DNA from: Amphiscolops sp. MND2022
Lineage: Eukaryota
Length of the DNA stretch: 64,000 nt
Direction of reading: 5' to 3'
Assembly: GCA_964187785.1 (NCBI GenBank)
Contig: OZ076409.1
Span: forward strand, 43,588,001 to 43,652,000
Shown here: piece after piece, positions 1 through 40,715 of the stretch
How positions within the stretch are numbered: the stretch's first letter is position 1
Layout of the letters: each line of letters opens with the position of its first letter
Position numbers and translations under genes: made by a program
The notes under the pieces: model-generated
Database searches by the model: none
What the model was told of the DNA's origin: nothing
Seen by the model: the letters and a program-made list of their open reading frames with translations, nothing else

Positions 1-220
1 GAGAAGTAACTTGAGCAGAAATTCCCAAATATAGCCAATCAAAGGTCAAATACATGACAATCAAGATAGAACAGCAGATAATTTATCAATCTTTTAACAT
101 TTTATAGCAATTTTACCAATTTTGCTATTTTCGCGAACTTTTTGATGAATTCAGAGCAGTTGTATTTCCATCTAAAATTTTCGTTGTCAAAGCAGATTCT
201 ATTTGTGACATGCTCAAACA
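1..220 (-). repeat. 3' LTR of BEL-A (runs off the window start)
   Basis: Minus strand starts TGTTTGAGCA at 220, preceded by a degenerate G-rich PPT-like tract (GAGGCGTGCGGTA). Aligns with 5811-6030. Confidence 0.85.
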
Positions 221-320
221 TACCGCACGCCTCGATCAAATTGAACCATTAGGAGAAAACAAAGCGATTAGAGTTTCAACTAGAATAAGAGCAATTGGCC
301 TGACTTTTGGTAGTATTTTT

Positions 321-3300
321 TTAAATGACGCGTGAGCCATCAAAGAGGGGAAGTTTTTTGAGTTTCTTGACAAGACGATTGTATTCGCCAGTTGATGTTC
401 TTTTGAGCTTTACAACACGAACAAAATTGTCTGGTCCACTATGCACATACGACACTCGAGCCATGGGCCATTGTAAGGGAGCCGCGTTCTCGTCCATGAC
501 ATGTGCATCATCGCCCACTTTGAGATTGGAGCTCTCTTTCGTCCATTTAGTTCTTTCCTGGAGAGTGGATACATATTTTTTTCCAGCTATTCCCGAAATG
601 ACATAAGACATTTTGTATGTGAGTCCATCGAGCAGTTGCAGAGCAGCATTTCAAATCGGATGTCTGGAATGACTTCTCAGCCGGGTAGCTTCACAGTTTT
701 GATCCACTTATCAGGTGCCCAGGAGTCAAAATGACTTCGTCTTTCGGATCATCTGAGACTAATCCTATGGGACTTGAATTTAGCACGTTTTTTACTTGGC
801 AAAAAAGGGTGGAAAGCTCTTCAAAACTGAAAATATTTTTACCCATCATTCCAAAAATGCCTTTCTCTGCTGTTGACGCACAAGAACATCAGTAGCGTTC
901 TTAAGTTCTACTGAAAGTCTGGAATTTTGTTTTCCTGTTTTGTTTCTCACGTAAGTTTTCGATGAATCGCAAAACGAAGGCATTTATGCGAGTCACTTTT
1001 CGAAACGAGATGTGCTTCGAAAGATCAATAATATCTATGAACGTGTCGTTCGACAATTGAACCGCCATCACGGTTATGTTTTGAGAAGACTTTTTCGTTT
1101 CTTCTTTCGTTCCTTCTGGTTTGAATAGAACGAATGGTTCATGAGTTTGCACTTGAGTCCAAATTCTTAAGATTTTGTTCTCTTGAATTTTAGCAATTCG
1201 ATTGGCTACAAAAGTTGCCCGAACGCTTGGCTGATAAGATATTCAGTTTAAAACAATAGTAGAGTCAGTCCAAGCGTATTGTGATTGAATTTTCACATTC
1301 ATTTTGTTAAGGCTTTCGAGAACTGATTTAACTAATTGACATCCCAGAAGGGCTGTGCAAAGTGCAAGTCTGGGTATTGATTGCGTTTTTAGAGGTGCAA
1401 TTTTGGCTTTTTGCTATGAGTAGAGTCAAACTCCGCCCGCCTAGCTCATCTTGATGCAAGCAGCCTTTCCGATCTCTGAAGAATCACAGAAGAGATGCCT
1501 GAACACGGTATCTGCTTGTTCTGTTTTCAACACAAAACGTTGTAGTTTTATCTTGCGAAGCGCATGTAATTTGAATCGTCATTCGATATACGATTCCATA
1601 TTGTCAGAGGGTATTTTATCATCCCAGCCGACATTGGTGTGCCATATAAGATGCATGATATGCTTCAATTTCAGCGTGACCGGCGAAAGCCAGCTGAAGG
1701 GGTCAAAGATTTTGGCGATGTCACTAAGGACTTTCCTTTCGTCTTATATGAATTATTCAGCTGTTGATCTAACTGCTGAATTTTGAAGCTGAAGTTATCA
1801 TGAGAAGGGTCCCTGACAAGGCCTAAGGTTTTAATGGTAAGATTTGTGCCAAGAAACTCAAAATGACTCATTAGCTTCTCGATACTCGGGCGGTAGAGAA
1901 AGCGTGAGCGGCGAATCACTACGGGTGTAATTTCGTAGGTGGAATTTGTTTCGTTCCAACCCGCTGATCAAACCTTTCTGTAGTTGCTTTGCTTGTTCAA
2001 CAGGCGGAGCACCTGTCAGAAAGTCGTCAACGTAAAAGTCACGCTTTATAGCCTCTTGAACGTCAATTGATACATTTGGCTGATTAGCGCACTCTGTCAA
2101 TGCTCGAATGGAATGATAGGAGGCTGCGTCGTTACCGTACGTTACCCTAGTCAACCGAAGAGTCTGAACTGTTTGCAATGAATTTGATCGCCAGAGTATT
2201 CTATGGAAGTCACGATCTTGTCGATATAGTTCAACTTGTCGATTCATTTTGGAAAAGTCTGAGCTAATAGCTATTTCAAAGAATCTGAAGAGCACAAGAA
2301 TGTTGAAGTGGTCATCTTGTAACTTCGGCCCCGCGAGGAGACAGTCTTTCAGAGAATGACCAGATGTCGTCCTTGCGCTGGCGTCAAAAACGACTTTCAA
2401 TTTTGTTGTTGTGCTCTCTGTTTTATGCACACAATGATGAGGGAGATAATAACAATTAGATTGTTTAATTCATTTTCGGGACACATGTTCCATATGGCCA
2501 AGTTCAATGAATTCTTGTATGAATGCAATGTATTTTTTTGAGTTCAGGATTGGCATTCAACTTGCGCTCGAGACTAAAGAAACGCTTCAACGCGCTTGCT
2601 CTGCTGAGGCCTAGTTTGATGTCACTTGGCCGAAACGGAAGTTGGACGACGAACCTGCCATCTGGCTTCCAAATAGTTGTGTCATTAAAGTGTTTTTCAC
2701 AGGCTGCTTCTTCTTCAGTCAAATGTTTCTTGATTAGTATATTCTCTAACTCCCAAAACTTCGATAGGAGGTCATCCGTGGTCTCCGAAACTACAGACAC
2801 ATTGCTGCTAATGGCATAGTCCAATAGGTTGCTAACTTCATTGACGGGACCAGATATTACCCAACCAAAAAGTGATTCTCGAATTACAACTCCATTGTCT
2901 CGGATTCGATTTTCCAGACAAATGTCTTCGAGGACGTCAGCGCCAAAGAAAATGTCAGTTTTTCCGGGCACGATGAAAATTGGGTCTGCTAAAGGGAGGG
3001 TTTTCACATTATTCAATTGGGAAATGTCGATATGTTTCTCTAGCAATGTATTCGTAATTTTAGGAATATTGTGCAAAATAGTGTCAAGAGTCTGATTCAG
3101 TCGAGTGGGTAGAACGCCCAGAGTCTTTTGGGCCTTCGCGGCACCTAGAGGACTGATTGGCGTTTGCGTCCGGACTATTTTCAACATTAAGGCTTTCGCG
3201 TTGGACTCTTTGATGAAGATAGCCTGTGACCCAGAATCAAGAAAAGTGCGCATTTGAATATCTTTTCCTGAATGACCTTGAATTTTTACCGTCACCGTTG

Positions 3301-4340
3301 AGAGAAGAACAGTGCTGGTGTTCGTGGCTTTCGCACAAAAGCCTTCAGCAGCTTGATTCTTTTGCGTCTCATTGCAATTTGGTTTCACATCACTTCTGTA
3401 CCCAAATTAGACTGATCATTTCTTTTTCGATACGAATTTTTGGGTTGATACTGTGGATGGCTTTTCACGATGTATTAGCGAATGATGCTTTAGCTTACAT
3501 TCTCTGCAAGTGAATTTTGAAGTAAATGAACCAACATTGTGGCCTGCATGAAGACAGTTGAAACAAACTTGTTTTTGTCGTGCATATTTCTGGTGACCAA
3601 AGGCAGGCATTTTGAGAAACAATGGGCAAGATGACAACCTGTGATTGTCTTGACAAGTATCACCACATACACTGACGATGGTATGGGCTTTTGATTCGAC
3701 TGAGTTTTCACGGAAATCGGATTTTGGATGAGTTCTTTAACAGCACCCATTCCAAGGGCACGACTTCGCGTGTCCAAAAATCTTGCCAAGTCTTCCCATT
3801 TCGCAAGCCAACGACGGATTCACTTTGCATAGGCGGTTGCGTCCAAAGGGCTTTCAAATGGGCTTGGACTATGCAACGCTTGTTTTCATTGCTTTCATTG
3901 AGAAGTTTCATGGCTATTGAGTAGTTCGCATTCGTTATTGTGACAGATGCTATCAACTTGGCAGCATCGTCGACCAAGCAGTCCTTTAGGTAATTCAACT
4001 TTTCAGAGTCGCTCAGTTGATTGTTACCATCAACTGATGCTCTGGACAAGTCAATGGATGACATCCATTCAGTATACAAGCCAGTGAAACTGGGTAATTG
4101 GAGTTTCGGCGATCGCTTTTTACGGGTAGAAGCTGAATTCGAAGAACTTGGCGTTGCTGCCATGTTCTTTTTATAACTGGCTATTAATGCTCACCTTTTC
4201 ATCAAACAACAAATTGGTTTCAATTTCAGTAGATAGTTCGTTTCCAGCCTCGATAAGTGTTCAATATCGGCATCATAACGATGCACAATTTGGGATTTAC
4301 CTTTAAAAGTCGAGAGCAAGTCTTATTCTTACTAGACTAG
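321..4340 (-). pseudogene. BEL-A gag-pol, frameshifted, integrase core largely deleted
   Basis: DUF1759-like gag KLQLPSFTGLYTEW; Zn knuckles CFNCLHAGH..C..C...HH; protease FLDSGSQ; RT KLKVVFDASA...DFYVDDFLTGA; C-terminal LQERTKW...PLQWPMARV (DUF5641-like). Many stops and frameshifts. Confidence 0.93.
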
Positions 4341-4786
4341 CTTACGTACATCCTGTCTGGGATTAGTTTCGCGGGATGCTTCACCGGGAACTTGTGCAGT
4401 TTCATCCGATATTTCAGAAAGTTATGATTGAAAAAAGAAAATCCGACTTTGGGACGTGTTTCCAATAGAGTTTTGAAGAGTCGAGTAGGTTTTGAAAGGC
4501 AACAATTGAGTGAAAGAACACTCACGAAGACGTCAGGTAAAATTTATGGGAGAAATTTGAAATTGCAAAAAACGTTCTTTTACTCAGTAACAATCGAGCG
4601 AGATAACACCCAAGAAATCACAGAGTGAAAGTTTTTCTTCGCTTTTTCTAGAGTAAAATACTCACTTCTAAGTCTTCTGCTGTTTCTTTCTCCGCCTTTC
4701 CTTACGATACATGTCCCGCAAAAGTGGAAAGTGATCACTTGGTGTAAATAGTATTTCGGGTAAAATAGTCAATTACTGTAAATTTG

Positions 4787-5389
4787 TCAAAGACTGTAGT
4801 AATCCATTAGTGTAGTGGTGCAGCAATGTTGAGGTAATTTTTTTCTCACTTTCGATCTGTTACGCCTGAGCAATTGACTCAAGTTTCTTTGTGTTGTAAG
4901 ATAATTTGGAGTAGGTGTAGCTCTATGAATTTGTTCGGACGTAACCCCAGAAGCTCTTGAGATCTTTTCTGATTTTTTTTTGCGGTTGGATAAAAGGTGT
5001 TGTCTAGGATTGATTGTCAAAAATTTGGCAGTGATCAAATGTTTTTGAATGAAAAGAGTTCCGATGGGTTGATTGTACACAAGCACTGATACTTGTTTCC
5101 GGGAAGGTTCAAAAATTTCTACTATTTATTCAAGTGTTGACCTTCGATTTCCGTTGCTTTTATGCGGATAAAGAGGAATATTTAGGAGGTCGTGCCAGAT
5201 CACGATGTTACTTCGTGTTTTGAGACATGTTTCCAGAAGGTGGTGTAACTGTGTTTTATGGTTTTTCGCAGTAGGATGCAAGCTTACACCTGGGTGTGCA
5301 AAGTCCTTGCCTTGTATAAGTTTTCGTAATGTAGTAGGTGCTTTGTCAACTGCCCTTCGCAAAGAAATTGCTCCAATTACATAAACCAT
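4787..5389 (-). pseudogene. Extra ORF between the 5' LTR and gag of BEL-A; weakly SGNH-hydrolase-like
   Basis: Two in-frame ORFs split by one stop. VYVIGAISLRR sits at the block I position, HPGVSL at block II, IVIWHDLLN at block III, and EQIH late. Motifs are non-canonical. Confidence 0.45.
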
Positions 5390-5695
5390 TAATTCAATTT
5401 GGTTTCCAAAAGATTCACACTTTTGCGTTTCACAGTTTTTCTCAGTTTTTTCATACCCAAAGGGTAAAGGGTACTAAGCTTTTCGATTGACGATCTTCTG
5501 TTGATGTTGTCGGGTCCGCACACCACTCGGTCCGCGCCGATCCTGGTGTAATTCGGAATCCTTATCCTTGCAGCGGACGAGACTGGCTTTCCAGCCAGAT
5601 GAAAAAGTTCTTTGGAAAAAAAGAAAGTTTCAGTGAATTCAGAGAATGAGGGTTAAATAATTATGAAGAACGTAGCTCCTTTGGTTGCCAATTGT

Positions 5696-5731
5696 GGCTA
5701 AGATTCGGCTAAGATTCGGCTAAGAATCGGC
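5696..5731. repeat. 11-bp tandem repeat GGCTAAGATTC x3
   Basis: Read directly, in the 5' leader of BEL-A. Confidence 0.9.
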
Positions 5732-5772
5732 ATAAAGCGGGAAAGCACCGAAGAGAGATAGCTCGAAAGCCT

Positions 5773-6030
5773 TGAAGCATAATATGAAACGTATCAAGTT
5801 TTAATTGGTGGAGAAGTAGCTTGAGCAAAACTTCCCAAATATAGTCAATCGAGGGTCAAATTCATCACAATCAAGATATAACAGCAGATAATTTAGCAAT
5901 CTTTCAACATTATACAGCATTTTTACAAATTTTGCTATTTGCGTGAACTTTTTGATGACTTTAGAGCAACTTTAGTTTCATTTGAAAAATTCGTTGTCAA
6001 ATAATTTTCTATTTGTGACATGCTCAAACG
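5773..6030 (-). repeat. 5' LTR of BEL-A (~258 bp) followed by a degenerate PBS
   Basis: Matches 1-220. On the minus strand it ends ...ATGCTTCA, then AGGCTTTCGAGC, which resembles the BEL PBS TGGTCCTTCGAGC. Confidence 0.8.
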
Positions 6031-6540
6031 TTATTGTTTTTCTTTTTGAATTGATGGTTTCTACAAACTGGTTTTCTACAAACTGTTTCCACACCACCTG
6101 GAACCGTCTTAGAGTGGGTCCACGCTAATTATGAAAAAAGAATGAAATAAGTTTAGTTAATATCAAACACAAATTCGCTTTCAAATGTGAGACTGATATA
6201 TCTGATAGAACCCTGGATCGATTTCTGGTTAGATGTTTGAGAAATTCAACGTTGTCGTTGGCTTCTCTATAATCGGGGGGTAGCGAGAGAACGAGCGAGG
6301 TTTCACTACATGTCCACGTTCAGGGTCAAATTTAACATGCTTCAGTTCCTGAATCAAATCATTCTGTAACTCCTTGGTTTCGCCTACAGAAACGGCGCCA
6401 GTGAGTATATCACCCAGGGAAATCAAACAGTTAATTTTTTAAAGTTTGAGTGGAAAGTTTGAGTTTGGATTTGAGTTTGGCTCAAACAGGGCTGCGAAAG
6501 CTTGAGTTTGAATCTAATCTAAAATGTTTGACTGAATTAG

Positions 6541-7144
6541 GTCCAACTTGTAGAATACCAGTTTGTAGAATTCTACAAACTGGTCCTATAAAGTCCAATT
6601 TGTAGAATTTTTTTGAAACAAACTGGATCAGTGAATTCTACAAAGTGGATCATTAAATTCTACAAATTGGACATCCTGCACACAAGATCCTGAGAGGTCC
6701 ACTGCCTAAGATCTAAAGGAATAAGATCTAAAAACCAAAAGGCGTGACGTATCCGATGTATGCACGCTCTCACTCACCGTCGCAAAAACCAGCTCTCACT
6801 ACGATCGCTTAGCGATCTCCGTTCCCACTGAGTCTTTTATCCTGTTCGACCTTGCTTAGTATGATGGGAACATAACCGGCCCCAATGGGCTGCAGTGCAC
6901 TAGAGGAAATCGGGACATATCCGACGCACGTTTTATGTTTTGCATCATTCCTACATTATTGGTCTTATCGTTTTTCTTCAATTCCAGAATTCGACAAACT
7001 GGTACTCTACAAACTGGACCTACCCAGTTTGTAGAATACCATTTTGTAGAATCCAGTTTGTAGAAAAAAACTCTACAAACTGGACTTCACTTTTCTGCAA
7101 ACTGGATTCTACAAACTGGTTTTCTACAAACTGGTTCCATACCG
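6541..7144. repeat. Non-autonomous element with arrays of TTCTACAAACTGG in both orientations, nested in the hAT; a second end fragment lies at 6059-6097
   Basis: Many copies of CTACAAACTGG / CCAGTTTGTAG at 6541-6672 and 6990-7136, around a unique core. Confidence 0.7.
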
Positions 7145-7188
7145 TTTGACTACATGAAAAACAAAAAAGCTTTCATTTTTTTATTGAA

Positions 7189-8166
7189 TTAGAAGTAAAA
7201 CCAAACGTTTTTTGACAACAATGATATATTTTTCTTCGAGAACACATTGCAATTGTGATTATCAGGCGTAAGTCGACTTTGTAGGAAATTTTTTGATATT
7301 GGTTCCAGTGAAAAAAGACGTTCTGTATCACCACTTGTTGGTCGAAAATTGGTCATCATAAGGTTCACGTCAAACTCATCAATAAATTCACTTGCCACAG
7401 ACGATGAACACGAGATGGGCTCCGACGTGTATTCATGGTCAGATGATGAAACTTGAATGCCATCTTGTAATTGATGCATAGACTTGAAATGCTCGTTAAA
7501 TTCCCCATGTTTGTACAATATTGCATCAACAATCGAATTGCCAACAATGTCATTCTTCGAAATGGTTTTTTGGGAGAGTTTAATGTGGGATCAGAATTCG
7601 TAGGATGCTTCAGAAGTTTGATCGCTTTAATAGCCATTGAGACGCCAGCATTTCCACCTTGCAGTAACAAAATAAGCTGTTATGGCTTCAAGATGTTGCT
7701 AATTTTCACTAGTTTTGTTCAGCCGAAACTAAGGGGTAATAAATCCGTGCTTACTATAAACGGGATAACAGGGTTAAATTTCAAAAGTCGTTCGAGCATT
7801 GAGACTATCTCGTAGCGTTCTCTTTTATAATATGAAGTTGCGGCAATTTAGCAGTTTTCTGAAATTCCAACAGTTCATCCAATAATTTTGGTTTCCCGTG
7901 TATGAATTGTAGGGGGGTTGTACCAGAATTCGGGCACTTAAGTTTCTCACCACACTTCACGCATTTACGGACCCTGGTTCGTCGCCCATTGATAAACTCC
8001 ACATAAAAGTGCGGGTTCACAGGATTGGAAGAGGTGTCTTTCGAAACTTTGTATTCCACTGCATTTTGATTGCTTTTGGCAAAACTTGTTGCGCATTGGA
8101 AGTTGATGATTGTTGTACCTTTGACTGCTCAGATGTCACAAGCACTTGCACCTCGCTGTCGGACAT
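7189..8166 (-). pseudogene. hAT transposase remnant (BED zinc finger plus C-terminal dimerisation domain)
   Basis: BED-like HF..KCVKCGEKLKCPNSGTTPL..H and hAT dimerisation motif RPTSGDTERLFS. The catalytic middle is missing. Confidence 0.85.
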
Positions 8167-11100
8167 TGCAAATCTGAAAGACAAATACAAGGTATGATAC
8201 CAACACAATAAATAATGATAAATATAATAGAATATGCTATATAATAAAAGTATTAAACAAGCCAAAAAAATGTATTTGAAAAAACGTAACAGACAGTTTT
8301 CCATAGTTTTGAAGTTCCAGTTTGAAATCAACGAGGCAGAAGTTCGATTTTAAATCGGGGAAAGTTGAGTTTCAGTTTGAATTTTCGGGTAAAAAAAGTT
8401 TGAGTTTGTGTTTGATTTGCAATAGTTTGTGTTTGAAGGCTACTGATTGGGTCTGAGTTTGAATTCCCTGATATCATCAACATACAAGTCTCTTTCTCTT
8501 GATTTTGAGATGCAGGAGGAATGCCTTCACGATTTGCGCACTCAACGAGCGACCGAATGCCGTGGTAGGAATTGCTTGCGACACAGTAAGTTACGCGCGT
8601 CATTGTTTTGATGGCGTCGATGGGTTGCTGCTTGTCAAGCGCCAAAATATTCGATGATTGTCTCTATCTCTTTTGCAGAGTTCCATTTGAAGATACATCT
8701 TTGCAATGCCTGATGACATGGCAATTTTGAAGATTCGAAACCTGAGCAAAATGTCGGAGAGGTCTTCTCGAACCTTGGAACCGACAAGTGGACATTCGTT
8801 CAGAGGGACACCTGTAGTTGTTTTTGAGCTTGCGCCGAAAACAACACGCTATTTTGTCGTCGAGCTGTCTTCCTTCAGCACACAGCGATTTGGGAGGTAG
8901 TAGTTTGTGAAAACAATCAGTTCCAGGCTTTCTATTTTTTCAAGATGACCAAGGTAGAGAAATTCTGGATCAATTGCAGAGCATTTCCTGAGGAGAGACT
9001 CGTCTCGATGCTGAGTCTGCTCCAAACGGAGGGATCGCTTCATTGCATTTGCTTTGCTGTCGCCAACCCTTTGTGATTCTCCTTTGGTTGGCATTTGGAC
9101 CACAAATCTTCCCTCAGTAGTTCGTTGAGTTGTGGCTTTTTAATGCTCTTCACACTTGCGCTTTTCAACAGTCGTTTTTGCTCGGGGAAGCCTTCTAATT
9201 CCTAAAATCTGGATAACAACTGGTCTGAATCTGCTTCAGAGGAAATTACCAGATGTGTTTTGATGCAGTTTGCATCCGAGGTTGCGACTGGACCCGATAC
9301 AACCCAGCCAAGAATAGAGCCCCCAGATGTAGTCCATTGTCTTTGATTTTGTTCTCAAGGAGGATTTCTTCACCAGCATCGGCTCGTAGAAGTATATCGA
9401 ACTTGGTTGGAATGTTGAAGCTCGGGTCTGTTAGATTCAGATTGTTGATGTGCCTCATTTGTGAGATATCAATCTCGAAGAGGGTATCACATTCGTAAGT
9501 TTTGAAATCAGATGCAAATTGACATCTACTGCATCATTGATTGTGGTCGACCAAATTCAACAAGTCTTATGGGTCTGTGTCGAGCCAAGTATTGTAATCG
9601 TAGCTTGACTACTTCTTGGCGAAAGCATTAGAGCCTTGGACTTGATTGCAGTAATAAAACTGGCTTGGGACCAGGATTCCAAGAGTGATCGCATCTCGAT
9701 TGGCTTGCCACTCGCATTTCGTATAGAGACAACTACAGTGGAAAGAGGTACTCCATTGTTCTGATTGTTATTGTTCAAATGCCCTGTTGTGAACTTAGAG
9801 TTCGAGTCTTTGTGAGACGCCGATTTTAAAGTTCGAGTCATTCTGAGACGCCGAACTACCGCTCGCTTGAAAAGCGTTTCTCCCGTTATCACCGACCGTG
9901 GTGGATTGGGAGGTCCTTGAGTTCGTTGGTGGTCTTTGAGTTCGAGCAGCGCGTGGTGGTTCATCTTGCATTTGCGGCAAGAGAACTTTGACTGGAAATC
10001 TTTCGAACAATGATCAGGATGGAAACAATTGAAGCAGAGTTTCTTCCCTTTGATGATGTGATGTCGATTGGCATCTGACAGAGCTTTGAACTTAGGACAA
10101 GTATTCAATTTAGGATCCTCACTGCAGTCTTCGCACGATTGACTAGATACCGCGTATGATTGGATTCGCTGTTCAGACCGTTGGGCGTTTCGAGGTGGGT
10201 CTACTTGACTTGATTGCTTGCAGCCACCAACCTTGAGTGCCCGGCTTTGAGTGTCGGGGAACTTTGAAAGCTGTTCCCGTGATAGGAGGTCTGTTTCGGT
10301 GGGGTAGTTCAGCTGTCACTGCTTGTGTGACTCCGGATGTATCCTCTCAGACAGAAAATGAACGAAAATAGCATGCCAGTACTCCACTGGTTGTCCCAGC
10401 TCCGTCAAGGCTCGTTTGTTGTGTCAAGTAGTTTTCTCAGACCGGTTGAGGACTCAGACTTAAGTGAGTCTTGAGACCAAATTGCTTGTATGTGGCCTTC
10501 TACAGTGCTCCGCTTGTTCTCATAGCGTTCGTGCAGAAGTTTCCAAGCGATTTCGTAGTTATAATCAGTGATCGTAACTGAGCTTTACAGCTTGACTGTC
10601 CCTCTCTTGACACAAGCCTTCAAGTAATTCAACTTCTAAGACTTCGATAATTGAATGTTGGAGTTGACTGATGCTTTGAAAAGGTCGGCGAAGCTCATCC
10701 AATCCGTAAACGAACCTGTAAATGATGGAAGTTGAAAAACGGGAGCTTTAGTCTGCTTGAAATCAGGCTCCTATCGTTCGAAGATGTACTTGAAGAGTTT
10801 CCCCTGATTTCTGATGCCCTTTTGTAGTTGTCAATTGGGGCTGACAGGCGTGCAACAGCTACACTTGCGTTGTGAAGGAACTGTGTCGAAAGCTCCATGT
10901 CTTGAGACAGTTGATCATCATCGAGAAGTAGTTCTATCTCAGTGTCATACCAATGCATGACTTGGATCTTGTCTTGAAGCGTCTTTAGAGGTGCTTCGGC
11001 TTCAGCCAGCTGATTTGGCGTTGCAATCACCGTGGTTAAGAATAAACCACTTTCTTTCCGAGCGTTGTGAAAGCACCCTTGAACCCACCCTAACTCTTGA

Positions 11101-11468
11101 AAGTCGTTTTCCGTCAGCTGGTAAGGGATGGGATGGATTAATGGGATTCTTCATGATTGAAGCTGATCAACTGGTAGCAAGGGGCTATGATAATGGTTTT
11201 TCCAGGCGCGATAAGCTTTCATCAAATCAAATTGCGACAGTAAAATATTGAGGTAGTAATATGACTCCACAAGCATTATATAAGATGGCTTTTCTCGAAG
11301 AAGTCTTGATGGGCAGAGCTACTGTCAAATTGATGAGATATATGTTGGAACCTCAAGGTAACCTGTAGCTACTCAGACCAGCAAAAAGACAAAAATCCAA
11401 CTGTGAATTCAGTAAACAGAACTTCAAGGTAACTTTTAAATGAAAGCAAAAGTTGAAACTTTTAAACA

Positions 11469-12120
11469 TTAAAGGTTGTGACATAGAGCTTCACCAGTTC
11501 CTGCATCTCTTTCACACTCAAAGACTTCATCATTACCGAGCTTGTTTAGGTCCTTGTTGTATTTTTTGTACAGGAGTTTATCTTTGAAAAGAGTTCTGAG
11601 TTTATAGAGACCGTCTTCGTTGAGGTGGGTGGCGTATTTGCGATTAAAATAGAGGACCCAAGTGATGTATCGGGTCACAGTTCGGTACCTCCAAGTAACA
11701 AGAGGCTGGTCTTTGGTCTTGCGCTCTTTTAATGATTGCAAGAATGCGTTTACTTGCTTCGAACGTACTTTATTTTCGTTTCGTTGAGGTACGCCAAAAA
11801 AGATAACTAACATAGCACAATGACACAAGAGGTTTGCAAGTTCTATAATCTCCTGAGTTTTTTAATTTGCAGGTGTCGTAGTTGGTTTCTCAATAAATCA
11901 CAAGTCGTTTTCCCGACAAAAAGAATGATGATGTCAAAAAAATCCTTGGGAAAATGAAATTGTAGACGTGCCGATCACTAGCACAAGAGATAAAAAATAT
12001 ATACCAATTTCTTGCCTCTAAATTCCTTGCCTCCAAATTCCTTGCCTGTGAGTCAGCAATCAAAAAGGGTTTCGTGGATGAGGTTCTGTATACATAATAA
12101 GGTGACTGTTGTGGTGCGTG
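11469..12120 (-). pseudogene. SGNH/GDSL hydrolase-like ORF upstream of BEL-B gag (frameshifted)
   Basis: My translation: PFLIADSQARN (block I, Ser codon 12051-12049); FDIIILFVG-ND-L (block III, 11901-11917, frameshifted); GVPQR; VNAFL; YATHLNEDG (block V DxxH with GAC>TAC). Confidence 0.8.
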
Positions 12121-12301
12121 CAGACCTTCAGAAACCTCTGCAAATGGTCATTCGGAGTAGGGTATCGGATATTTGTTGAGAAGATGTTAACTTTCAAAAA
12201 ATGATCCTTATTGCATATAAACTTGTCAATAAGTCTAATTGCAACGAACGAATAAGTTTTTGAAGACGGATTCCAGGATTAGCGCCCTAAACGGAATCGT
12301 A

Positions 12302-13458
12302 TCCATGGGGGTATAATAGATTTTACTGGGGCGATGACACAAATCGAAGCGTGAAAGTTAAAAACGAGGCGATTTGGGCTGGCATTATAAAATGCGCATA
12401 TGAACACCGCTCAATGTATATGAAAAGAGATCTCAAATGATTTGGGTGCGTGCTAGTTTTGTAAAAATCGGATTCAATCTAGACAAGGAGTAATTTCTTT
12501 GACTATCGATTTTGACTGTAAATGTATACAAATCGAGACCGAAACGGTAGCAAAAACAAGTGCTAATGCTCTAAAAGTGATACATAAGTGTTAAATTTTG
12601 GGACTGTAGTCTTCAGATGTCCGGGGAGGTCGGCGCACCAATAAATGGTATCGCCGATGCTCAAGTATAATACTCATAGACTCTTGTTTTCTTCAAATCA
12701 GAAATTTCGTTTCTTGATTGTCTGACTTCATTTGGTGTACTTCCGAAAACTTTCTGTGGCACTCATAAAGATGGCAATACTCTAGATATTATACTTTGTA
12801 ACAATGATCTTTGTGCATCCAGCTTTGTAGTTGATAAAAATTTTCTATCGAGCCACCATTTCCCGATCACTTTCCCGATCACTATTCCATGGGGGTATAA
12901 TAGATTTTACTGGGGCGATGAAACAAATCGACTGGTGGAAGGTAAAAATGAGGCGATTTGGACTGGCATTATAAAATGCACATATAAACACCGCTCAATG
13001 TACATGAAAAGAGATCTCAAATGCTTTGGGTGCGTGCGAGTTTTGTAAAAATCGGATTCAATCTAGACAAGGAGTAATTTCTTTGACTATCAATTTTGCC
13101 TGTAAATGTATACGAATCGAGACCGAAACGGTAGCAAAAACAAGTGCTAATGCTCTAAAAGTGATACATAAGTGTTAAATTTTGGGACTGTAGTCTTCAG
13201 ATGTCCGGGGAGGTCAGCGCACCAATAATGGTATCGCCGATGCTCAAGTATAATACTCATAGACTCTTGTTTTCTTCAAATCAGAAATTTCGTTTCTTGA
13301 TTGTCTGACTTCATTTGGTGTACTTCCGAAAACTTTCTGTGGCACTCATAAAGATGGCAATACTCTAGATATTATACTTTGTAACAATGATCTTTGTGCA
13401 TCCAGCTTTGTAGTTGATAAAAATTTTCTATCGAGCCACCATTTCCCGATCACTTTCC
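12302..13458. repeat. Tandem duplication, ~584-bp period, with junction microduplications
   Basis: 12302-12875 is repeated at 12886-13458. TTTCCCGATCACT is doubled at the junction and a ~40-bp piece recurs at 13483-13523. Confidence 0.95.
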
Positions 13459-14110
13459 AGATTTTCCATCGAAAATTCCTCGAATTTTCTATCGAGCCAC
13501 CATTTCCCGATCACTTTCCAGATTCGTTTTTCTGCTTCTTGGGTTGTTTCTGGAGACTGTCTAACTTCACATTATTTCTTCAACAATTTGAGAAATATTG
13601 ACTCTTTCGTGAACTGCTGATAAAACTTCCACTTTGACATCGCTAGACTCGCTATCTGGAATTTCTCAAATGGTTTGATAGCAAATGTAGAAAAGACCAA
13701 ATGTCTCTTACTCACGAGTGATGTTTCAACTCGATCTTGATTGCAAATGGACAAATCATATCAACAAAAAACACAAATCAAGCAAAGCCTTCTTCCTTCT
13801 GAAATCAACTATTCCTTGGTGCACGCCATCCTATTTCAAATACAACTTTCATTTGAATCCGGTCCTATCAATCATCTTTTATCGTTTGCAAATTTGGCGT
13901 GCAAACATGCAGATGCTTAGAAAGTTAGAGAAATTTCAAAAACTTTGTTTCCAGTGGATTTTTGGCTTTAGTTTGTCCTAGTCAGAAATGCTGAACCAAA
14001 ACACAAAGCTTCCTCTGGCAATGCATTTCCAGCTGAGTCTAACTTGCGTATTTATTGATATTATTTCGAATAAGTACATCTTCAGTCTTAGTGAACATGT
14101 CCAGGTTAGA
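12680..14110 (+). mobile_element. Deleted APE-type LINE (endonuclease end, present twice, plus RT C-terminus)
   Basis: THKDGNTLDIILC...SSHHFPI (APE SDH motif) and WTNHINKK...KAFFLLK...QIW...LEKFQKLCFQWI. Confidence 0.8.
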
Positions 14111-21748: not shown

Positions 21749-22595
21749 TGTTGGCTCCAGTCATCAGCAGGCAAAAATTTCAATTTGGAACGTGGTGGTT
21801 GAGAAACAAGACTTAAACTCCTAAAAACTTAGAAGAAATTTTGAAGAAACATCAAGCATCACAATTGGGGAAAACACCCCAAATGGGTTTTCTAGAAGAC
21901 TTCTAGTCATAGAGCCGTGAAATTTGGCACACAATTTGGTAACTGATACGGACACACCGGACAAGTTTCAAGGTCATCTCTCTACTATAACCAACTTTAC
22001 CCCTCACATGTGCGATGTTCAAGGTCATTGAGCCAAAAAGTTAACTTGGTTATTTACCCATATGACCATGTTAGAATGTAACTCTGTTGAAATTGATGAT
22101 ATTTACATAGTTTAAACATGCTTTTGAGCCTACCTTACCAACATGCCATATCCACCACATACTTTGTTTACATAGCCAAAACCTTTAATTTTTTACTTAA
22201 ATGTCATTAATTTATACTTCATATTTTGACCTGTATTTATCGAATAATAGTGAACGATATGCATACCATAATTAATAGGACACAAATTGATTGGAAAGCT
22301 GTATTCAAGTTGAGTCTCAGTACCATTTCGATTCTCAATTCAATTCTTCACCTCTTTTCAACGTTTCGCCAAAGAATTAGGACGACTAAGTAAGTTACTC
22401 TCAACTTGTCGAGAGCTGGACCCTTTAAGAGACAAGGAAGAAGTGCAATTCGTGATCATTTGATACTACTTAGTCAAGATATAGTCCTTTCTAATCTAAG
22501 AAGCAAGCAGTGTTCGGTAACGATCCGCAGTGTCGAGCACCGAATTCAGGGCGGCGTTAAGTTTGGTCAAGTTAAGGGATCAAGCAGCTGTTACA
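21749..22595 (+). repeat. 5' LTR (847 bp)
   Basis: TGTTGG...GTTACA; direct repeat of 26946-27792. Confidence 0.95.
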
Positions 22596-25500
22596 TTTGG
22601 TCCGCCGACCCGGACATCATCAGTTTGAGGCGTACATCACAGTGGCAGTGGACATCATTCTGGATGGACACTGCAAGACGAACGCTGTCTCCTTCGTGTT
22701 TGGATTACATTCGTGGTGGAAGACACGTGAGCAGTTAGAGTCATCAAAGGGGTGACACAACATCTATCTGTTCAAGTGGCAGGAAGCTCGACGAAAGCTT
22801 CCGTGCTGGTTTCTGTGGCAAACCAGAGGGCTAGAAAGACAAGCCTAATTGTAGGGAAATCCTAAACCTAAAAGTGGCGACGGGTAATCCTGTTTGCACA
22901 GCAATCGAAAAGTATTGCAAGAGTCGTCGCATCTGAACGGAATCGCGACTGGTAGCTGAGGCGGCTATTCACGAACAACAAGAACTGTGGAGACGGGGTC
23001 TACAGGTGGTGATTGGAACTCTGGGAAAGTGTACACTGGGGCTTTGGCATTGGACTATTGGGCGATTTGGAACTGGATTGGTTGTGTACTTTGAGAGTTG
23101 GGCTTTAGCGGAACTCTGGAGGCAATTGTGCTCAAATTCCAGTTTGGGACGAATTGTGTCCTTGGGAAACCTATTCCAAATTGAAATGAAAGGTATGAAA
23201 CACGACGTCGCTGCAAGTATATCCACCAAATAAAGCAAAGGGATCCAGTCATTGGGACGAGATCCACCGAAACAATCAAGTTCGTCAAAGAAGGCGAGCA
23301 TAATCGACATTTTTGGGTTGATTCTTCGTTATTTTTCAATTGAGTTCTGGGTTGAGCAATTGACACCTCGGATCTAACAAATTGCTGAACTTGGTAAAAG
23401 TGACAAAGTCGAAAAGAAGCAATTTTGTTGTCAGAAAGCCCTCAGTGAAGCAAGAAACTGAGCTAAATAGAACAATCTGAACAAATGAAAGCCAGAATGA
23501 AAGAATGCTCGAGGTGCAGCATCAACGAATGACAAACTTATTTGATCAAAGAAACACAAGGCAAAGCCACATATTGATGGAACTCAGATCAATAGATCTG
23601 GAAAATGATTTCGACTGGTATGTGTGGCGCTTTTATATGGATGCTGTGGTCACGGACTCTGATACGGACTCTATATTGATACGGACTCTGATCAAAGAAT
23701 TGCACTACAAGCTTGAGGAACAAAGCGCTACCCTTTGCAAAGGCAAATTGAATGATCGGGTATTCGAATATCGCGAAAACGAACAAGTATTACTGCATAA
23801 CGTAGATCTCATGTTGGACCTCACGAAAGAAGACAGCTAAGTCAAAGTGTGACTGAATGGGAAGAGTTCTTTGCAGAATTAGAAGCCAGATGGTGATATT
23901 GGTTCCCTGATGTAAAGACAATGTTGAAGGGTGCAGAAGAGAAGATAAACAAAACGAAACTTCTCCAAATGGCAAGTGGAGCCTCTACAAGCGCGGCTTT
24001 GAGGTGCCCTCATACAAGGAAGCTCAGGCAAAGTAGCTTCAATCCAACAAACCCAATTGTTCAGTGGAAGCAACTAGTGGAAACAAATCACTGGCTCAGT
24101 AAAGCAGGGTAGTTGGTGAAAGACGACGGGTTGTTGGAGTATCCAACCCTTCTGATGCGATTAACTCAATCCGTGATGTGGAAGTGTTACCCAAACAAAG
24201 CAACAACGGGTCAGTCAAAGCCACCTCGAAGCAAAACAGAACAAAAGTTAGTTCTAACTCATCAAACGCAAAACAAATACGTCTTTTAGAAGTGGAAGCA
24301 ATAAAAAAACAAGATGAAATTGATGAAGAGCTAGCTGCAGCAAGACACAAAGCTGAAATTCGAAGGAATAAAAATGAAAATAACACCCTCACAGAAGAAC
24401 TCAAAATTGCTAAACTTGGGAAAGTCGTGAAGACCAAACACGTCTTCAACCGCGAGAAGGAATTAGCGCGAAATGGAATTCAGCTGAGACCGACTGTATC
24501 ACAGACAGTGACAAAGCAATTGCAATCAAGCAAGGAACCGCAGAAATGTTATCGGACCTTCAAGGCATCCTCAACCTCAACAAAGCCTCCTACAGGAACT
24601 GAACCTCGTGGGCAAAAAGCTTACTCTCAGAAGGACATAAGTGGAATGACGAGCAAAGCGTCACGCCTGAGAAGCAACAAAGGACTCTGTTTTGGGCACA
24701 TTGATTCAAAGAGTATTGTTGGATAACATTGGCGCTCGAACCATGAAAGCGTTGAAAGTAGTTCAATGATGAGTACTGTGAAGCAAACTCAAACAAGGCG
24801 CAGACTTCGCGCAAAAAAATTAAAGCGATCGCAAGGAATCGCTGAAAAGAAAAGACGAATTTATGTTCGAGCGAGAACAAACGGCTTTGCAAAAAACTCC
24901 TAACCAGAAATTAAAAGGAAAGTGTACAATGAAAAAATGGAAACCTGAGCAGATGAAGTGTTTAAACGTGTGTCAAAACTATGGAAAAATGCGAGTCAAA
25001 TTTATCGATTGTGAGTCATTTGAGGACTCAAATTTGTCAAATGAGGAAAGCGAGGCAAAGAAAGGAACATCGAAGTTTTTCACAGCAGAATGGATGTGGA
25101 ACTGGCCAGAAACTTTCGCTGTAGACGATGGATGGCAAGACTTCCGTTCCGAAACCCTCCTCGTGGATATAATAAACACTTTGGAAGATGAGATTCACTT
25201 GGTCATGAGTGATCACTTGATAGAGCAAACAGAGGAGAACTTGGAGTACACAATGACTGAAACAATGAAAGAGCATCAATGCTTAGCATTCGCATCGAAA
25301 AATGAAACTTCGGAAGACCCGAGTGTACAATTTGAACTGCTGCAAGAGCGTGCAGAAGTCACCACTGGACTACAGAAGGTACAGCAAAGGAAACTATTCC
25401 AAATGACGATGTTCTATGTCGTTACTCTACTCCTTGAAGAAGAAAACAAATGACTTGACTTGAACAAAAGTTATGGGTTTGAGAATGAGCAGCAATATAC

Positions 25501-26945
25501 AATGCCAGAATATTTGAATGGAACAGCCATGTATCAAAGGTTATGCGTTGGTGTAATGAAACATGACAAACCAGTGAATGACGATACCAAAAGCGAAGCA
25601 CAAGCCATGAAAGCTCATTTTGGAAGAAAGCTGATGTTGAGTTCAATGTAAGCCTTGTTAATGACACTATCCCGATTCATAGTATTTTATGGAACCATTG
25701 GACTGGCAATGGAAACTCTGGGAATGATGCAGTGGCACAAGCTAACTGCATTGATGAAACGCAATTGAGCAACGGCTATCGCAATCAACCGAAGAAAAGA
25801 ACTTGGAAGATTGAACCCATCTCAAACCTGCTACATGAAATGGATGAAAGATCTCAGTTGAGCGTGATTGCAATACGAGACAACAGATTTGGTCTACATG
25901 ATTCAGAGACAACTTGTTGATGGCAATGACGAAAATGTGTTCTTTGAAAAAACCAACAACAGCAAGTTGGAGTAACGGGTCTTGCAATGGGACGGCTATA
26001 CTTTTAAGAAAATGTGGACTCTGTGTGAGTCGCTTGGTAAATTGGAAGTTTCAGATGATCATTTGGAGCTTGAGAGAAACCCAGATTATGAAATGTTCGA
26101 ATTTTGTGATGAGAGAAGCACGGTAGCTTTCTTCAAACAGAAGCGAAAGCCAAACTCCACAGAATGGCCCTTGCTGGGTGAAAACACGAGTGAAGCTACA
26201 AACAACAACTTGTGAGAAAGGAAAAAGCAAATGGAGCGCAGCGATTGAGTTTAAAACACCAATATTTCCTATTGGATGCATAGAGAACATTTAAAACAAA
26301 GGAAAAAATCTTCAGTCGTTGTAGTGTGGAATATTCTCTTTATCTACTGATGGTGCTGATAGATGATTCAACGATTATTCACAAACGCCAACTTAAATGC
26401 CTGATTATGGAAAAATTAGAGAACGTAATCTTTTTGACATGTCTCCCCATGGTCAGTCAACTTTGGTGACGAAAATTGTAGCAGAGCAAATCTTGGAAAA
26501 GTGGTTGGAGATATTTTCGATAATCCTGGAAATCTACTCTTTGAATTTTGAAGCAATTATGGAAGCTGAGTTAAAGGAACTGAAGCATTTTTGTACCATG
26601 CCTTTTAAAGATTGAAAAGAAATTCACTTGATCGAGTACAATGGTTGTCGGATTTTGATGAAGAAGTTTGGAATAATTGGGAAAACTATGACTTCAAATG
26701 ATAAAACAGTTTTTCGGAAACATTTAGTTAGTTATGTGAGTATGTGGAAAACAACTTATTGTCAGCGAATATGGGCTAGAAAAGTATTGCAGCAGAGGAA
26801 GAACACCGCAAACAACTCAAGTTTGACTATGAGACTGGAGTTCTCATAAAGACAACGACGATTGGTGACAAACTCAAAAGACCAGTAATAAAACTGGCAC
26901 CCTCTTGTTTGAAAACGTTTTTTGGCAGAAAAACAGGGCCAGCGA

Positions 26946-27792
26946 TGTTGGCGCCAGTCATCAGCAGGCAACACAACTCAATTTGGAACATGATGGTTGA
27001 GAGACAAGACTTAAACTCCTAAAAACTTAGAAGAAATTTTGAAGAAACATCAAGCATCACAATTGGGGAAAACACCCCAAATGGGTTTTCTAGAAGACTC
27101 CTAGTCATAGAGCCGTGAAATTTGGCACACAATTTGGTAACTGATACGGACACACCGGACAAGTTTCAAGGTCATCTCTCTACTATAACCAACTTTACCC
27201 CTCACATGTGCGATGTTCAAGGTCATTGAGCCAAAAAGTTAACTTGGTTATTTACCCATATGACCATGTTAGAATGTAACTCTGTTGAAATTGATGATAT
27301 TTACATAGTTTAAACATGCTTTTGAGCCTACCTTACCAACATGCCATATCCACCACATACTTTGTTTACATAGCCAAAACCTTTAATTTTTTACTTAAAT
27401 GTCATTAATTTATACTTCATATTTTGACCTGTATTTATCGAATAATAGTGAACGATATGCATACCATAATTAATAGGACACAAATTGATTGGAAAGCTGT
27501 ATTCAAGTTGAGTCTCAGTACCATTTCGATTCTCAATTCAATTCTTCACCTCTTTTCAACGTTTCGCCAAAGAATTAGGACGACTAAGTAAGTTACTCTC
27601 AACTTGTCGAGAGCTGGACCCTTTAAGAGACAAGGAAGAAGTGCAATTCGTGATCATTTGATACTACTTAGTCAAGATATAGTCCTTTTATTCTAAGAAG
27701 CAAGCAGTGTTCGGTAACGATCCGCAGTGCCGAGCACCGAACTCAGGGCGGCGTAAAGTTTGGTCAAAAGAAGTGATCAAGCAGCCGTTACA
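26946..27792 (+). repeat. 3' LTR (847 bp)
   Basis: TGTTGG...GTTACA; direct repeat of 21749-22595. Confidence 0.95.
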
Positions 27793-34309: not shown

Positions 34310-34375
34310 ATCGGGATTCGAACCCACGATCTTTTGCCTTGACGGCTAACGCGCATCGTTTTTCGCCCAACTGCC
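34310..34375 (-). other. tRNA-like segment (B-box GGGTTCGAATCCC) near the start of the BEL-C 3' LTR
   Basis: Minus strand reads TTAGCCGTCAAGGCAAAAGATCGTGGGTTCGAATCCCG. No complete cloverleaf. Confidence 0.45.
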
Positions 34376-37300
34376 ATATTTGTTTATTTCAAACTAACGT
34401 TATTGCTACCGCAACATCTTTCGGGCCCAAGGAGGTAAGGAAAGTTTTATAGTCACAACAATTTTTTTTTCACTATTTTACATGTTCTTACTTGAAAATA
34501 TTTTTTTCATACATGTTGATACATGGAGCATAAATGTAGGAAGTTGAGGAAACAGAACATTGTTCATTCGGGAAGGGGAAGGACGGGAGCGAGTTTGATT
34601 ACTGGGCGTACAAGGTTACCAGATGCTGTTCTGACTTCGGGGGACCTGGCGACGGCGTCTGTGCCGAAGTTAAGCTTTACGACACGAGCTAGTGGACAGT
34701 GCCCTCTAAGTGAGTTCGGTTCATCAATCCACACGAGATCTCCGGTCTTAAGATCTCTGTTTGGGTGCGATGACCACTTCGAACGGCGGTTCAGAGTACT
34801 CGAGCGTAACGCTTGCGATGGTCGACGTCTGCTTGTTGATGCGAATGCAGTACTGTACTTGAAGTTCCATGTAGAAAATGATTTGGAGCTAAGGCGTCGA
34901 AATCGGTCGCATCTGCACTTGCAGGTATTAACCGTTGTGCATTCAAACCTTGTTCTACGAGGCAGAACGTGGTTGCAAGATTTTCAGCTGTCAGACGTCT
35001 ATTTCCGAGGACAGCGTAGAACACGTGCTTGAAACTACGGACTAAACGTTCCCAAACACATCCATATTGCGGAGCACTGGGTGGGTTAAATTTCCATTTG
35101 ATTCGTTTCTTCACAAGTGATTCTGCGATGACTTGTTGAATCCAGTTTCTGATGTTCTGTGAGAGTTCTTTGTCACTCGCTATAAAGTTGGTGCCGTTGT
35201 CTGACCAGAGAACTGATCGAGTGCCTCGTCGGGCAGCAAATCGTTCAATTCCCATCACACAACTACTGGTGTCCATTGATGGCACAACTTCACAATGGAC
35301 GGTGCGAGTAGTTAGGCAACTGAATCCCCAGCGTTTCTGAGTAGAACGTTTCATGGACACGTAGAATGGACCAAAGTAGTCGACTCCAGTGTTGCTGAAT
35401 GGAAGTTCTCTACATGCGAGTCTCTCCCGTGGAATATTGGACATCATTGGAGCTAACGTCTCAGCTTTGCGTTTAAGGCATGTGAAGCACCTGGATACAA
35501 TTGATCTCAAGGTTGGTCTCAATTTGACAATTGCGTACTCTTGTTGGATCAACGCCCTCAAGTATTCAACACCTTGGTGGCATTGATTTCCTCGAAAGTT
35601 TTCCAGGAGAACTCGAACTAATGGATGACGGGTATCTAGTAGAAATGGGTGTTTCATGTCAAATGAAGTAACACCCAGCTGTTTTGTGCGACCAGAAGCT
35701 CGCAATAGGCCATTAGGTCCAATGAAACGGAAAAATGCAACAATTTTAGAAGACTTGCTGAGGGGGGATGACTTCAATAAGCATTTCTATTCAGTATTCA
35801 AGGACTCGAGTTGTACCAGATGGAACAATCGCTGTTGGTCATCGTCGAGTTCAGCTGGATCGCTAATGAATCAAATGTCAGTGCGCTTGGATTCGTTCTT
35901 GGGAAGGAGTCGCAACATGTAAGCCACAATCCGCAGAAGTTTCTCGTGAGAACTGTACTTCGGTCATTCGAAAGTTGTTGCAATTTCGATTACTGTTGCA
36001 AAAATTGTACTACAATGATATTCTTTAGTTTCGATAACTTTAGTGGAATCAGCGCTTTTGTTGAACTTTAGTTTCTGACGAAAATCGTCTGGCGATTTGA
36101 TGGGGAAGTCGGATGTTTCTAAAAAGTTCCGTCCAGTCAGCCAACAACTGTTCAAAGAGCAGTTGCAGACAATCCACGGGTGCCCGCATCACCTAGGTTG
36201 TGAGCTGTAGGGACGTAATGCCACCCATTGCATTGCAGTTAACTGCAGAATCCCGCATACTCGGTTCGCAACAAGTATGGGTTGCTTTTCTAAGGAAGTT
36301 AACAACTGAAGCACAGTTGAACTATGGCTCCACATAAAAGTTTTGTCTATCGTCAAAGACAGTGCACAGAGGAGCTTGTCACGAAGTCGTGCTGCAAGTA
36401 ATGCGGCTTCTAGTTCCAACTTTAGAACAGTCAGTGCCTCCATAGGGGCGACTCTCGCTTTCCCAAAGACGAAAGCCAGTTGCGTCACAACACCGTGGTC
36501 GTTTATTAGTTTTCCTCGCAAGCAAGCGTTTGCGCTGAAAGCACCTTGTGAGCTATCACCAACCACGTGTAGCTGAATCGTTTCGACAGTTTGACAGAAG
36601 TAACTTTTTGGTATTGAATCTCATTCAAGGTTGAGAACTCTTTGCTTCACCCAGGAAATTACTTACAATTTTGTCTGGCAAGTTGTCGTTCCACTGCTGG
36701 CCACTAAGCCTCCAAATGTCTTTCAAAAGCAAGCGCCCATTGATGGTGAACGGCGCGAGGGGACCAATTGGGTCGTATACAGCGGATACCAAACTCAGAA
36801 CAACACTTTGAGTAACAGTTCTGTCGGTTTTTGGACTTATTCCTCTGCTAACTACTAGGGTGTCTGTTGAGTGATTCCATTCCAGTCCAAGAACTTCTGA
36901 GAGTTTCTCTGCAGTTGGAATTTCTTTGTTTTCCGTAGTTCTGTTGTCGCTGTTCGGATCCACCTCGATGGGGATGCTTCGTACATTAAACACCAACTTT
37001 GTCAGTTTAAACCCTCCGAAAGTAAGCATTTTAACAAGATCCTTCGCTTTGTTTGAAGCTTCGAGGCTTCGTTAGCTGTAGCACTTGATTCGAGGTAATC
37101 GTTCATATAAAAGTTGTTGTGAACGCTTCGTGCTGCATCCGGAAAGTTGGCTTGGTTATCTGTGGCAGTTTGTTTCAGAGCGTAGTTAGCGCATGTTGGC
37201 GAATCTTTGGAGCCGAAAATATGACGAACATACTAGATCACAAAAAATGTAGCTGCTGGGTGCTCCCGCCATAAAAATCAGAGTGAAGGTCTGTCAGGTG

Positions 37301-40300: not shown

Positions 40301-40715
40301 AGGTAGAAACACCCTCAACTGTGGGTGGAAACACACTCGACTGCAGGGGGGGGCTAATTAAGAATATTCGGCTCTAACGAAGGAATGAAACGTAATTTTC
40401 ATTAGTAAAAACTAAAATTCAACTAAAATTATAATCAGTAGTGAAGTAAAAACTTTGATGACCAACCAGAGTTCTGAGGTCGTCGGCAAAAAACAAGCTT
40501 TGCAAAAATTCCTCGAGACTGGATTAGGCCTCTCAAGGGCCCGAAAAATCTTTAGATGACTAAAGTCTATTAAATTAGGATTTCAAAGAATTGAAGTAAA
40601 AATAATATTAACCGCCAAGTCAAACTTGATCACAAAATATAAGAATATGACTCACATGTCGCCAAACTGCCATTACATTTGTTCATTTAAAATTAACGTT
40701 ACTGCTACCGCAACA
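34360..40715 (-). mobile_element. Third BEL/Pao element (BEL-C), degenerate, gag N-terminus deleted
   Basis: LTR starts TGTTGCGGTAGCA at 40715 and 34416, but the two match for only ~55 bp. pol lies between them. The downstream extent of the 3' LTR is undefined. Confidence 0.85.
34570..39000 (-). pseudogene. BEL-C gag-pol (Zn knuckle, protease, RT, RNase H, integrase, DUF5641)
   Basis: CFLCFNGQK; LYLPHHPVVHPHKPGK; FYMNDYL; DPIGPLAPF; GKARVAP; TGVDYFGP...SDNGTNF...WERLVRSFK; RPVIKLAP. Confidence 0.95.

Follow-up and report, generated by a model that had tools for sequence, protein, structure and literature searches.

SGNH hydrolases recur as cargo in unrelated retroelements; the locus described here adds BEL/Pao elements and a new position to this pattern. 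Among LTR retrotransposons, the gypsy-like Vesta elements of bdelloid rotifers carry a GDSL ORF (ORF3) after pol; within the genome this ORF is reported not to deviate clearly from neutrality, nor to be linked to copy number (PMC5408684). SGNH esterases are also found in the ORF1s of non-LTR elements (CR1, L2/ZfL2-1, RTEX) and in Penelope-like elements, and the esterase of ZfL2-1 has ester-hydrolysing activity and binds liposomes as well as anionic phospholipids (PMC3905857). Ngaro tyrosine-recombinase retrotransposons carry an SGNH ORF (PMC9210276). Two other element classes are on record: Terminons carry SGNH/GDSL genes as cargo (PMC6431247), and a Helitron-borne SGNH gene is described in platyfish (PMC4021074). 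Canonical BEL/Pao elements consist of gag-pol and rarely env; the BEL/Pao survey mentions env alone as an extra gene, and the word esterase does not occur in its main text (PMC3118150).

The window (the whole stretch of DNA analysed, 64,000 nucleotides) holds four LTR elements of importance here, A to D. There is strong support for reading element B as a dead member of a family of BEL/Pao LTR retrotransposons, and equally for its order: primer-binding site, leader, stand-alone SGNH hydrolase, spacer, gag-pol. The features are:

12623..12640, minus strand: primer-binding site; begins TGG, with the motif found after the 5' LTR of element D
12124..12622, minus strand: leader of 499 nt with six ATGs
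12123 to about 11492, minus strand: decayed SGNH/GDSL hydrolase gene (211 aa in intact relatives)
11155..11491, minus strand: spacer of 337 nt
9900..11154, minus strand: broken BEL/Pao gag; ATG at 11154, DUF1759 region at about 10758-10435
8520..9900, minus strand: broken protease region and start of RT, colinear with the pol of element A at 28-54%
12302..13462, strand not assigned: tandem duplication of about 584 bp, 96.7% over 578 nt; a later event
12680..14020, plus strand: what we take to be a probable LINE remnant, with endonuclease-like and RT-tail-like motifs (by eye)
1-6029, minus strand: element A, BEL; LTR pieces 1-219 and 5811-6029 at 85%
34363-40717, minus strand: element C, BEL; Peptidase_A17 and DUF5641, LTR starts 86% over 57 nt
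21749-27792, plus strand: young LTR element D; LTRs 97.8% over 848 nt, primer site

Like Vesta, the family of element B is an LTR element with a separate SGNH/GDSL ORF, intact catalytic residues and no membrane span, and a membrane role has been suggested for the Vesta ORF too (PMC5408684). However, the Vesta ORF lies after pol and is about 1.3 kb as amplified, whereas element B has a 0.63-kb ORF before gag, in a BEL/Pao host. The esterases of non-LTR and Penelope-like elements share the location 5' of the replication genes, the basic surface and the conserved active site. There, the esterase is a domain of an ORF1p which has a coiled coil and replaces Gag; here, it stands alone before a true Gag and has a Cys-rich tail. 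Ngaro is similar in that a gag/RT element contains an additional SGNH ORF whose function is unproven, but its ORF follows a recombinase, its repeats are split direct repeats and it has no integrase; no recombinase is seen in B. With canonical BEL/Pao elements, B shares a DUF1759 gag, remnants of protease and RT in gypsy-like order, and the primer site that follows the 5' LTR. By analogy, the hydrolase may work like the esterase cargo of other retroelements without being a member of their arrangements. What is new, as far as searched, is the BEL/Pao host, the stand-alone ORF between primer site and gag, and the Cys-rich tail. No published case of a BEL/Pao element with an SGNH ORF was found in titles and the first parts of abstracts; Repbase, Dfam, GyDB and subscription journals lay outside the scope of that search. 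To the sequence-only reading, such an architecture was not known to have been described. This stands for the host and for the position before gag, within the same search; it does not stand for GDSL ORFs in LTR elements in general, which are already in print for Vesta (PMC5408684).

The hydrolase gene of element B is heavily decayed. The intact relative P0023 aligns to the window (tblastn) in three pieces with a joint E of 9e-63: residues 1-70 at 12123-11902 (56%), residues 54-66 at 11950-11912 (92%) and residues 64-202 at 11921-11505 (65%). A profile of 37 relatives, run on all 858 six-frame chunks of the window, gives strong matches solely at this locus (best iE 7e-34; best match elsewhere iE 0.17). 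The SGNH motifs quoted in the sequence-only reading are all on the minus strand, in the order given there and in three frames. The gene has no Met at the start position and contains a 15-nt unit in 2.8 tandem repeats (12006-12047). Frameshifts separate blocks I and III, two in-frame stops directly follow block III, and there is a further frameshift near 11505. The catalytic Asp, present in 55/64 rows of relatives, is replaced by Tyr, just as the earlier reading had it. This copy is dead. Its end was first placed at 11469, which is a run-on past the late frameshift; the gene ends at about 11492. From the hydrolase stop to the gag ATG at 11154 there are 337 nt, in agreement with the description of an ORF in gag sense a few hundred bp before gag. 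By itself, the window copy matches no SGNH Pfam model at E <= 1; it is identified as SGNH through its relatives.

A search with the longest window piece (stops read as X) gave 16 relatives among 26 candidates; two of these are whole 211-aa proteins, and one of the two heads a cluster of 17 members. Seven intact 211-aa copies are 95-100% identical, and many other copies are broken. Across 1.84 billion representatives there are 194 related clusters at 50% identity (E <= 0.001), and nearly all of the 150 that were listed are shorter than 260 aa. No longer, fused form occurs among 772 candidates of 371-2000 aa, which is weak evidence, and no related locus was found in the metagenome contigs or viral contigs searched. 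Three relatives (P0041, P0195 and P0044) lie on contigs of 915, 948 and 1254 nt, which may be transcripts or short metagenome pieces.

Pfam places these proteins only loosely. Intact relatives match Lipase_GDSL_2 weakly (E 1e-4 and 6e-4, below cut-off), and 18 of the 37 aligned relatives match it at E <= 0.01 (best 1.5e-8). Every Pfam SGNH match is below the curated cut-off, for Lipase_GDSL_2 and Lipase_GDSL alike; the scores shown are 16-25 bits against cut-offs of 32.9 and 23.6. The Pfam comparison bears out the proposed family only through the relatives, all of them below cut-off, and not through the window copy (nothing at E <= 1). A phmmer search of one relative against PDB gave no match, and the hydrolase profile against PDB gave E 0.03 at best. 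The predicted structure is clearer. The AlphaFold2 model of P0023 has a pLDDT of 91.4 and a pTM of 0.89. PAF acetylhydrolase and sialate O-acetylesterase rank first in Foldseek (E 7e-7 to 1e-5). Comparison with 48,161 chains by VIA-align gives a GDSL protein at Z 16.2 (rmsd 2.2, 152 aligned), and the top 50 rows are GDSL/SGNH-type esterases and relatives, judged by title. The SGNH fold first read from motifs is thus recovered in the model. Atlas feature matches of two relatives are to eukaryotic GDSL-like clusters (score 0.93-0.94) and serve as leads only. The ZfL2-1 esterase is at Foldseek rank 25 with a TM of 0.37, so no special kinship with it is shown. H191 and S228 of that esterase are transposon-specific residues. 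Placed by predicted fold and by residues, the hydrolases are a divergent SGNH branch.

The catalytic residues are well kept. The residue counts leave out 17 young or own-locus proteins; their rows, some of which are fragments, were gathered on the basis of similarity to intact P0023, which favours conserved motifs. On these terms, Ser is kept in 99/108 rows, Gly in 105/124, Asn in 112/127, Asp in 55/64 and His in 52/64. His10 is present in 73/89 rows, and the three tail cysteines in 32/41, 30/32 and 29/31. Ser, Asn, Asp/Glu and His occur jointly in 27 of 37 full-span rows, nine of which are young near-copies. Mean column identity in the alignment of relatives is 27%. His10 and the three cysteines, Cys199, Cys204 and Cys206, might form a metal site, or lipid might be attached at them; this is a guess. 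All eight proteins tested are basic (pI 8.6-10.0, net charge +4 to +12). Their highest 19-residue hydropathy is 0.86-1.75, with no clear membrane span and no evident signal peptide. The 211-aa product has no coiled coil, no RNA-binding partner domain and no ORF1 domains.

We consider it likely that this is a BEL/Pao architecture in which the SGNH enzyme has a selected role, a judgement that leaves a lipid target aside. The intact protein would be a basic, cytosolic acyl-hydrolase that is active and is maintained by selection acting on the element. It would bind anionic membrane lipids by charge and cleave an acyl chain; Gag particles would in this way be anchored and then released at membranes, or loaded into vesicles. 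This would be an accessory role in place of an env gene. Such a membrane role is proposed from the analogy of the ZfL2-1 esterase. The most likely job may be to anchor Gag particles at membranes and release them, with a chance a little short of even. For expression, a pyrimidine run ending in CAG at 11184-11171, 17 nt before the gag ATG, is a candidate splice acceptor. The hydrolase would be read from unspliced RNA and gag-pol from RNA spliced at this putative acceptor; the model is weak, and we regard it as doubtful. The family lends itself to tests: the enzyme is small and stands alone, seven intact copies are near-identical, about 190 diverged clusters can serve to analyse selection, and a true Gag adjoins, so that the membrane targeting of particles can be asked about directly.

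The same architecture could serve another job. The enzyme could deacylate or deacetylate a host protein, a lipid messenger or a glycan, and so weaken defence or change the cell surface. Its closest solved folds include PAF acetylhydrolase and sialate O-acetylesterase, the full catalytic set is kept, the product lacks a coiled coil or RNA-binding partner domain, and deacetylation and depalmitoylation are named as options (PMC3905857). However, a shared fold shows no substrate. The lack of an evident signal peptide or membrane span speaks against surface glycans, and the uniformly basic charge fits the binding of anionic lipids. A host target is a real but unlikely possibility.

The hydrolase could also be passive cargo, a gene that entered the leader in a single capture and is carried from copy to copy with no gain for the element. 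Many copies are indeed broken, variation in the Vesta GDSL ORFs is described as near-neutral (PMC5408684), and BEL/Pao elements elsewhere work without a hydrolase (PMC3118150). Yet the catalytic and Cys positions are kept in the 194 clusters while the remainder drifts to 24-50% identity, and the seven intact copies are 95-100% identical. Passive carriage is accordingly improbable, and the small probability left over from these three jobs falls to a wrong architecture or to other roles. The conservation argues for selection on the gene and not yet on its place in BEL elements, a placement that appears to hold for the close relatives and may not extend to the distant clusters.

The primer-binding site of B was identified by comparison with that of young element D. 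The 13-mer from element D matches at 12628-12640 with one mismatch. With up to two mismatches there are four matches in the whole window, where 0.42 are expected: D itself (by construction), 12640, 13224 and 61617. The first B match and its duplicate at 13224 are on the minus strand; the match at 61617 lacks the TGG start. The 15-mer from D, with up to three mismatches, gives four matches against 0.36 expected; in element B it covers 12626-12640, and it adds a site at 5525 in element A. The matches in B (12640), A (5525) and D (22598) are each in element sense. The tandem duplication copied the primer-binding site (second copy 13212-13224) together with part of the leader. The proposal that the hydrolase lies between primer site and gag agrees with these positions: a leader of 499 nt separates the site at 12640 from the hydrolase, and gag follows with its ATG at 11154.

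Downstream, the next gene in sense is the BEL gag; there is no endonuclease-RT ORF2 in this place. A search with the first part of gag gave 14 relatives among 228 candidates, one of them the window's own. They are 55-73% identical and begin at window position 11154; two of them (P0180 and P0182) match DUF1759 at E 1e-38 and 2e-35. The gag of B is 55% identical to the DUF1759 region of element A and contains three Cys/His knuckles at about 10140-9960, read by eye. It was also considered whether a separate spacer ORF had been fused to gag by a deletion; this was rejected, as gag in the relatives has its start at 11154 and the reading ahead of it shows no conservation at the protein level. Element B stops near 8520, inside RT. 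RNase H and integrase were not found in B (queries from A and C match A and C only), and its own three frames give no Pfam match at 0.1. No LTR of B, 5' or 3', and no LTR pair was found in the window; both ends are disrupted. No tyrosine recombinase is visible by eye in the upstream frames, and no recombinase family matches the 79 relatives with flanking extensions. The region where B is cut off (6055-8450) contains short sub-terminal repeats (6055-7148) and ORF remnants at 7189-8128 on the minus strand. By eye, these remnants look like a hAT/BED transposon; they give no Pfam match at 0.01.

Other copies are known here from called proteins alone, and their relation to the window comes from alignment of translations. 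P0156, on another contig, begins with translation over the primer site and is colinear with 12625-11660, into the hydrolase. The leader is shared by P0168 (from 12205), P0102 (from 12175) and P0025 (from 12151). On the other side, P0025, P0035 and P0014 extend beyond the hydrolase stop to 11368-11323, and two more, P0188 (from 11266) and P0185 (from 11234), continue into gag. Entering from either side, these five read-through ORFs account for all but 57 nt of the spacer; none of the copies extends all the way from hydrolase to gag. A near-identical twin of the broken locus (P0002 and P0189, on a contig of 123,855 nt) is 97% identical over the hydrolase piece and may be an allele, a haplotig or a recent duplication.

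Hydrolase and gag also appear to occur together on other contigs. The sample comprises 43 contigs with a total of 46 hydrolase relatives, and 17 contigs with gag relatives, with 16 of 141 new representatives entered; the contig of the window itself, the near-twin contig of 123,855 nt and, as distant hydrolases, P0034, P0036, P0171 and P0198 were left out. Same-contig status rests on exactly equal nucleotide size of the hydrolase and gag contigs, and the counts cannot tell 5' from 3'. Six of the 17 gag-relative contigs also hold a hydrolase relative, with 0.18-1.66 expected (P 6e-9 to 2e-3, for assumed genomes of 1 Gb to 100 Mb); the expected counts ignore clustering of elements. On contigs of up to 130 kb, four of ten match and at most 0.29 are expected. 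The pairs are P0021/P0177, P0022/P0191, P0023/P0192, P0039/P0178, P0012/P0181 and P0007/P0184. The remaining 11 contigs, which have no hydrolase relative in the sample, represent sampling gaps or copies without the gene. In the young gag cluster, three of four members share a contig with a young intact hydrolase. Pairwise identities of hydrolase and gag are correlated over six loci, namely five matched pairs and the window (r 0.91, 9/720 permutations, p 0.0125); one pair was dropped as its hydrolase is too short. Three of the six loci are near-identical, and the correlation mainly shows equal age of both genes per locus.

Together, P0156, the read-through ORFs, the contig matches and the correlation make a one-off insertion unlikely. 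They support the hydrolase, at the level of sequence, as a family trait of this BEL/Pao family and not a stray LINE fragment. The suggestion that a BEL lineage had acquired an esterase accessory gene fits well: by P0156, the contig matches and the primer site, the gene is an internal part of the family. An unrelated LINE ORF1 fragment inserted nearby had been named as the opposing case, and copies on different contigs instead have leader and spacer in common.

The most general form of that opposing case is that the hydrolase came from another element (a LINE ORF1, a Penelope-like or an Ngaro piece) which inserted in one BEL copy, or that the contig matches reflect segmental duplication of a composite formed in this way. 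All three groups are known to carry SGNH domains. The LINE-like motifs, read by eye, lie directly upstream of the hydrolase on the other strand, where the 5' LTR of B should be. However, the remnant is antisense and outside the primer site, and it gives no Pfam match, no PDB match and no match to the other LINE in the window. Several copies on different contigs share leader and spacer, young intact hydrolase and young gag are on the same contig in three of four cases, both genes are of equal age at each locus, and the product is a stand-alone ORF of 200 aa without ORF1 domains. An origin by such an insertion is very improbable. That the hydrolase is the antisense partner of a LINE was rejected separately; P0156 and B have DNA in common from the primer site onwards, and no search supports the LINE reading itself. 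P0171 is a distant relative in which, by eye, an apparent LINE RT tail is joined in frame to the second half of a hydrolase, with no RT Pfam match. It can be counted in favour of an origin in another element, and it hints that some distant clusters lie in or near LINEs. The last alternative makes the hydrolase the 3' ORF (in env position, as in the known LTR precedent, Vesta) of a tandem copy lying upstream, with the 337-nt spacer as an LTR common to both. It could draw on same-contig counts that are blind to 5' and 3' and on a 57-nt spacer gap that no one copy bridges, but it is largely refuted and can hardly be credited. The spacer contains neither a primer-site match nor a purine tract ahead of a TG, so that it cannot be read as a tandem LTR. 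In B and in P0156 alike, a primer site is placed 500 nt before the hydrolase, and there is no integrase end upstream.

An internal hydrolase of the BEL/Pao family can be compared with the other elements in the window. Element A, with DUF1759 and DUF5641 (E 3e-16), has an extra ORF at about 5390-4990, between its primer site at 5525 and gag. Element C has extra ORFs at about 40030-39200: a relative of the extra ORF of A at 39705-39529 (39%, E 1.5e-8) and a second ORF remnant, before a gag whose start seems deleted. The hydrolase profile misses the extra ORFs of A and C, and Pfam gives nothing. Their motif spacing resembles SGNH by eye only; an SGNH assignment is not supported, as a local profile comparison gave equally high scores for 7 of 40 shuffles. 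Judged by sequence comparison, they appear to be a second family, with no detectable relationship to the hydrolase. An extra ORF before gag is present in each of the three pol-bearing BEL elements recognised in the window, which suggests that standard gag-pol annotation misses a layer of accessory genes. A broader reading would make the place between primer site and gag a regular accessory-gene slot in the BEL/Pao elements of this host lineage. Many families would carry an active SGNH lipase with a His/Cys metal site or lipid-anchor tail there, and others the unrelated ORF family of A and C; the lipase would substitute for env and move particles through membranes or vesicles between cells. This is a speculative extension, and quite unlikely as a whole.

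Element D contains a 119-aa ORF (23481-23840) and gag-like ORFs (24103-25453). It has no pol ORF of 120 aa or more and is probably non-autonomous. A decayed gypsy-like element lies at 56100-62291 on the plus strand (RVT_1, E 3.5e-17); its first ORF has a weak DUF1759 match (E 0.002). At 51302-52723 on the plus strand there is an uninterrupted 473-aa ORF of an ENaC/ASIC-type channel without introns, which matches nearly the whole Pfam ASC model (E 4e-36); like the BEL elements, this gene marks the host as an animal. It is flanked by 500-bp repeat copies at 48843-49325 and 52935-53480, which are 69-76% alike. A perfect 114-bp inverted repeat with a 1-nt spacer, at 46247-46475, is either a young foldback element or an assembly artefact.
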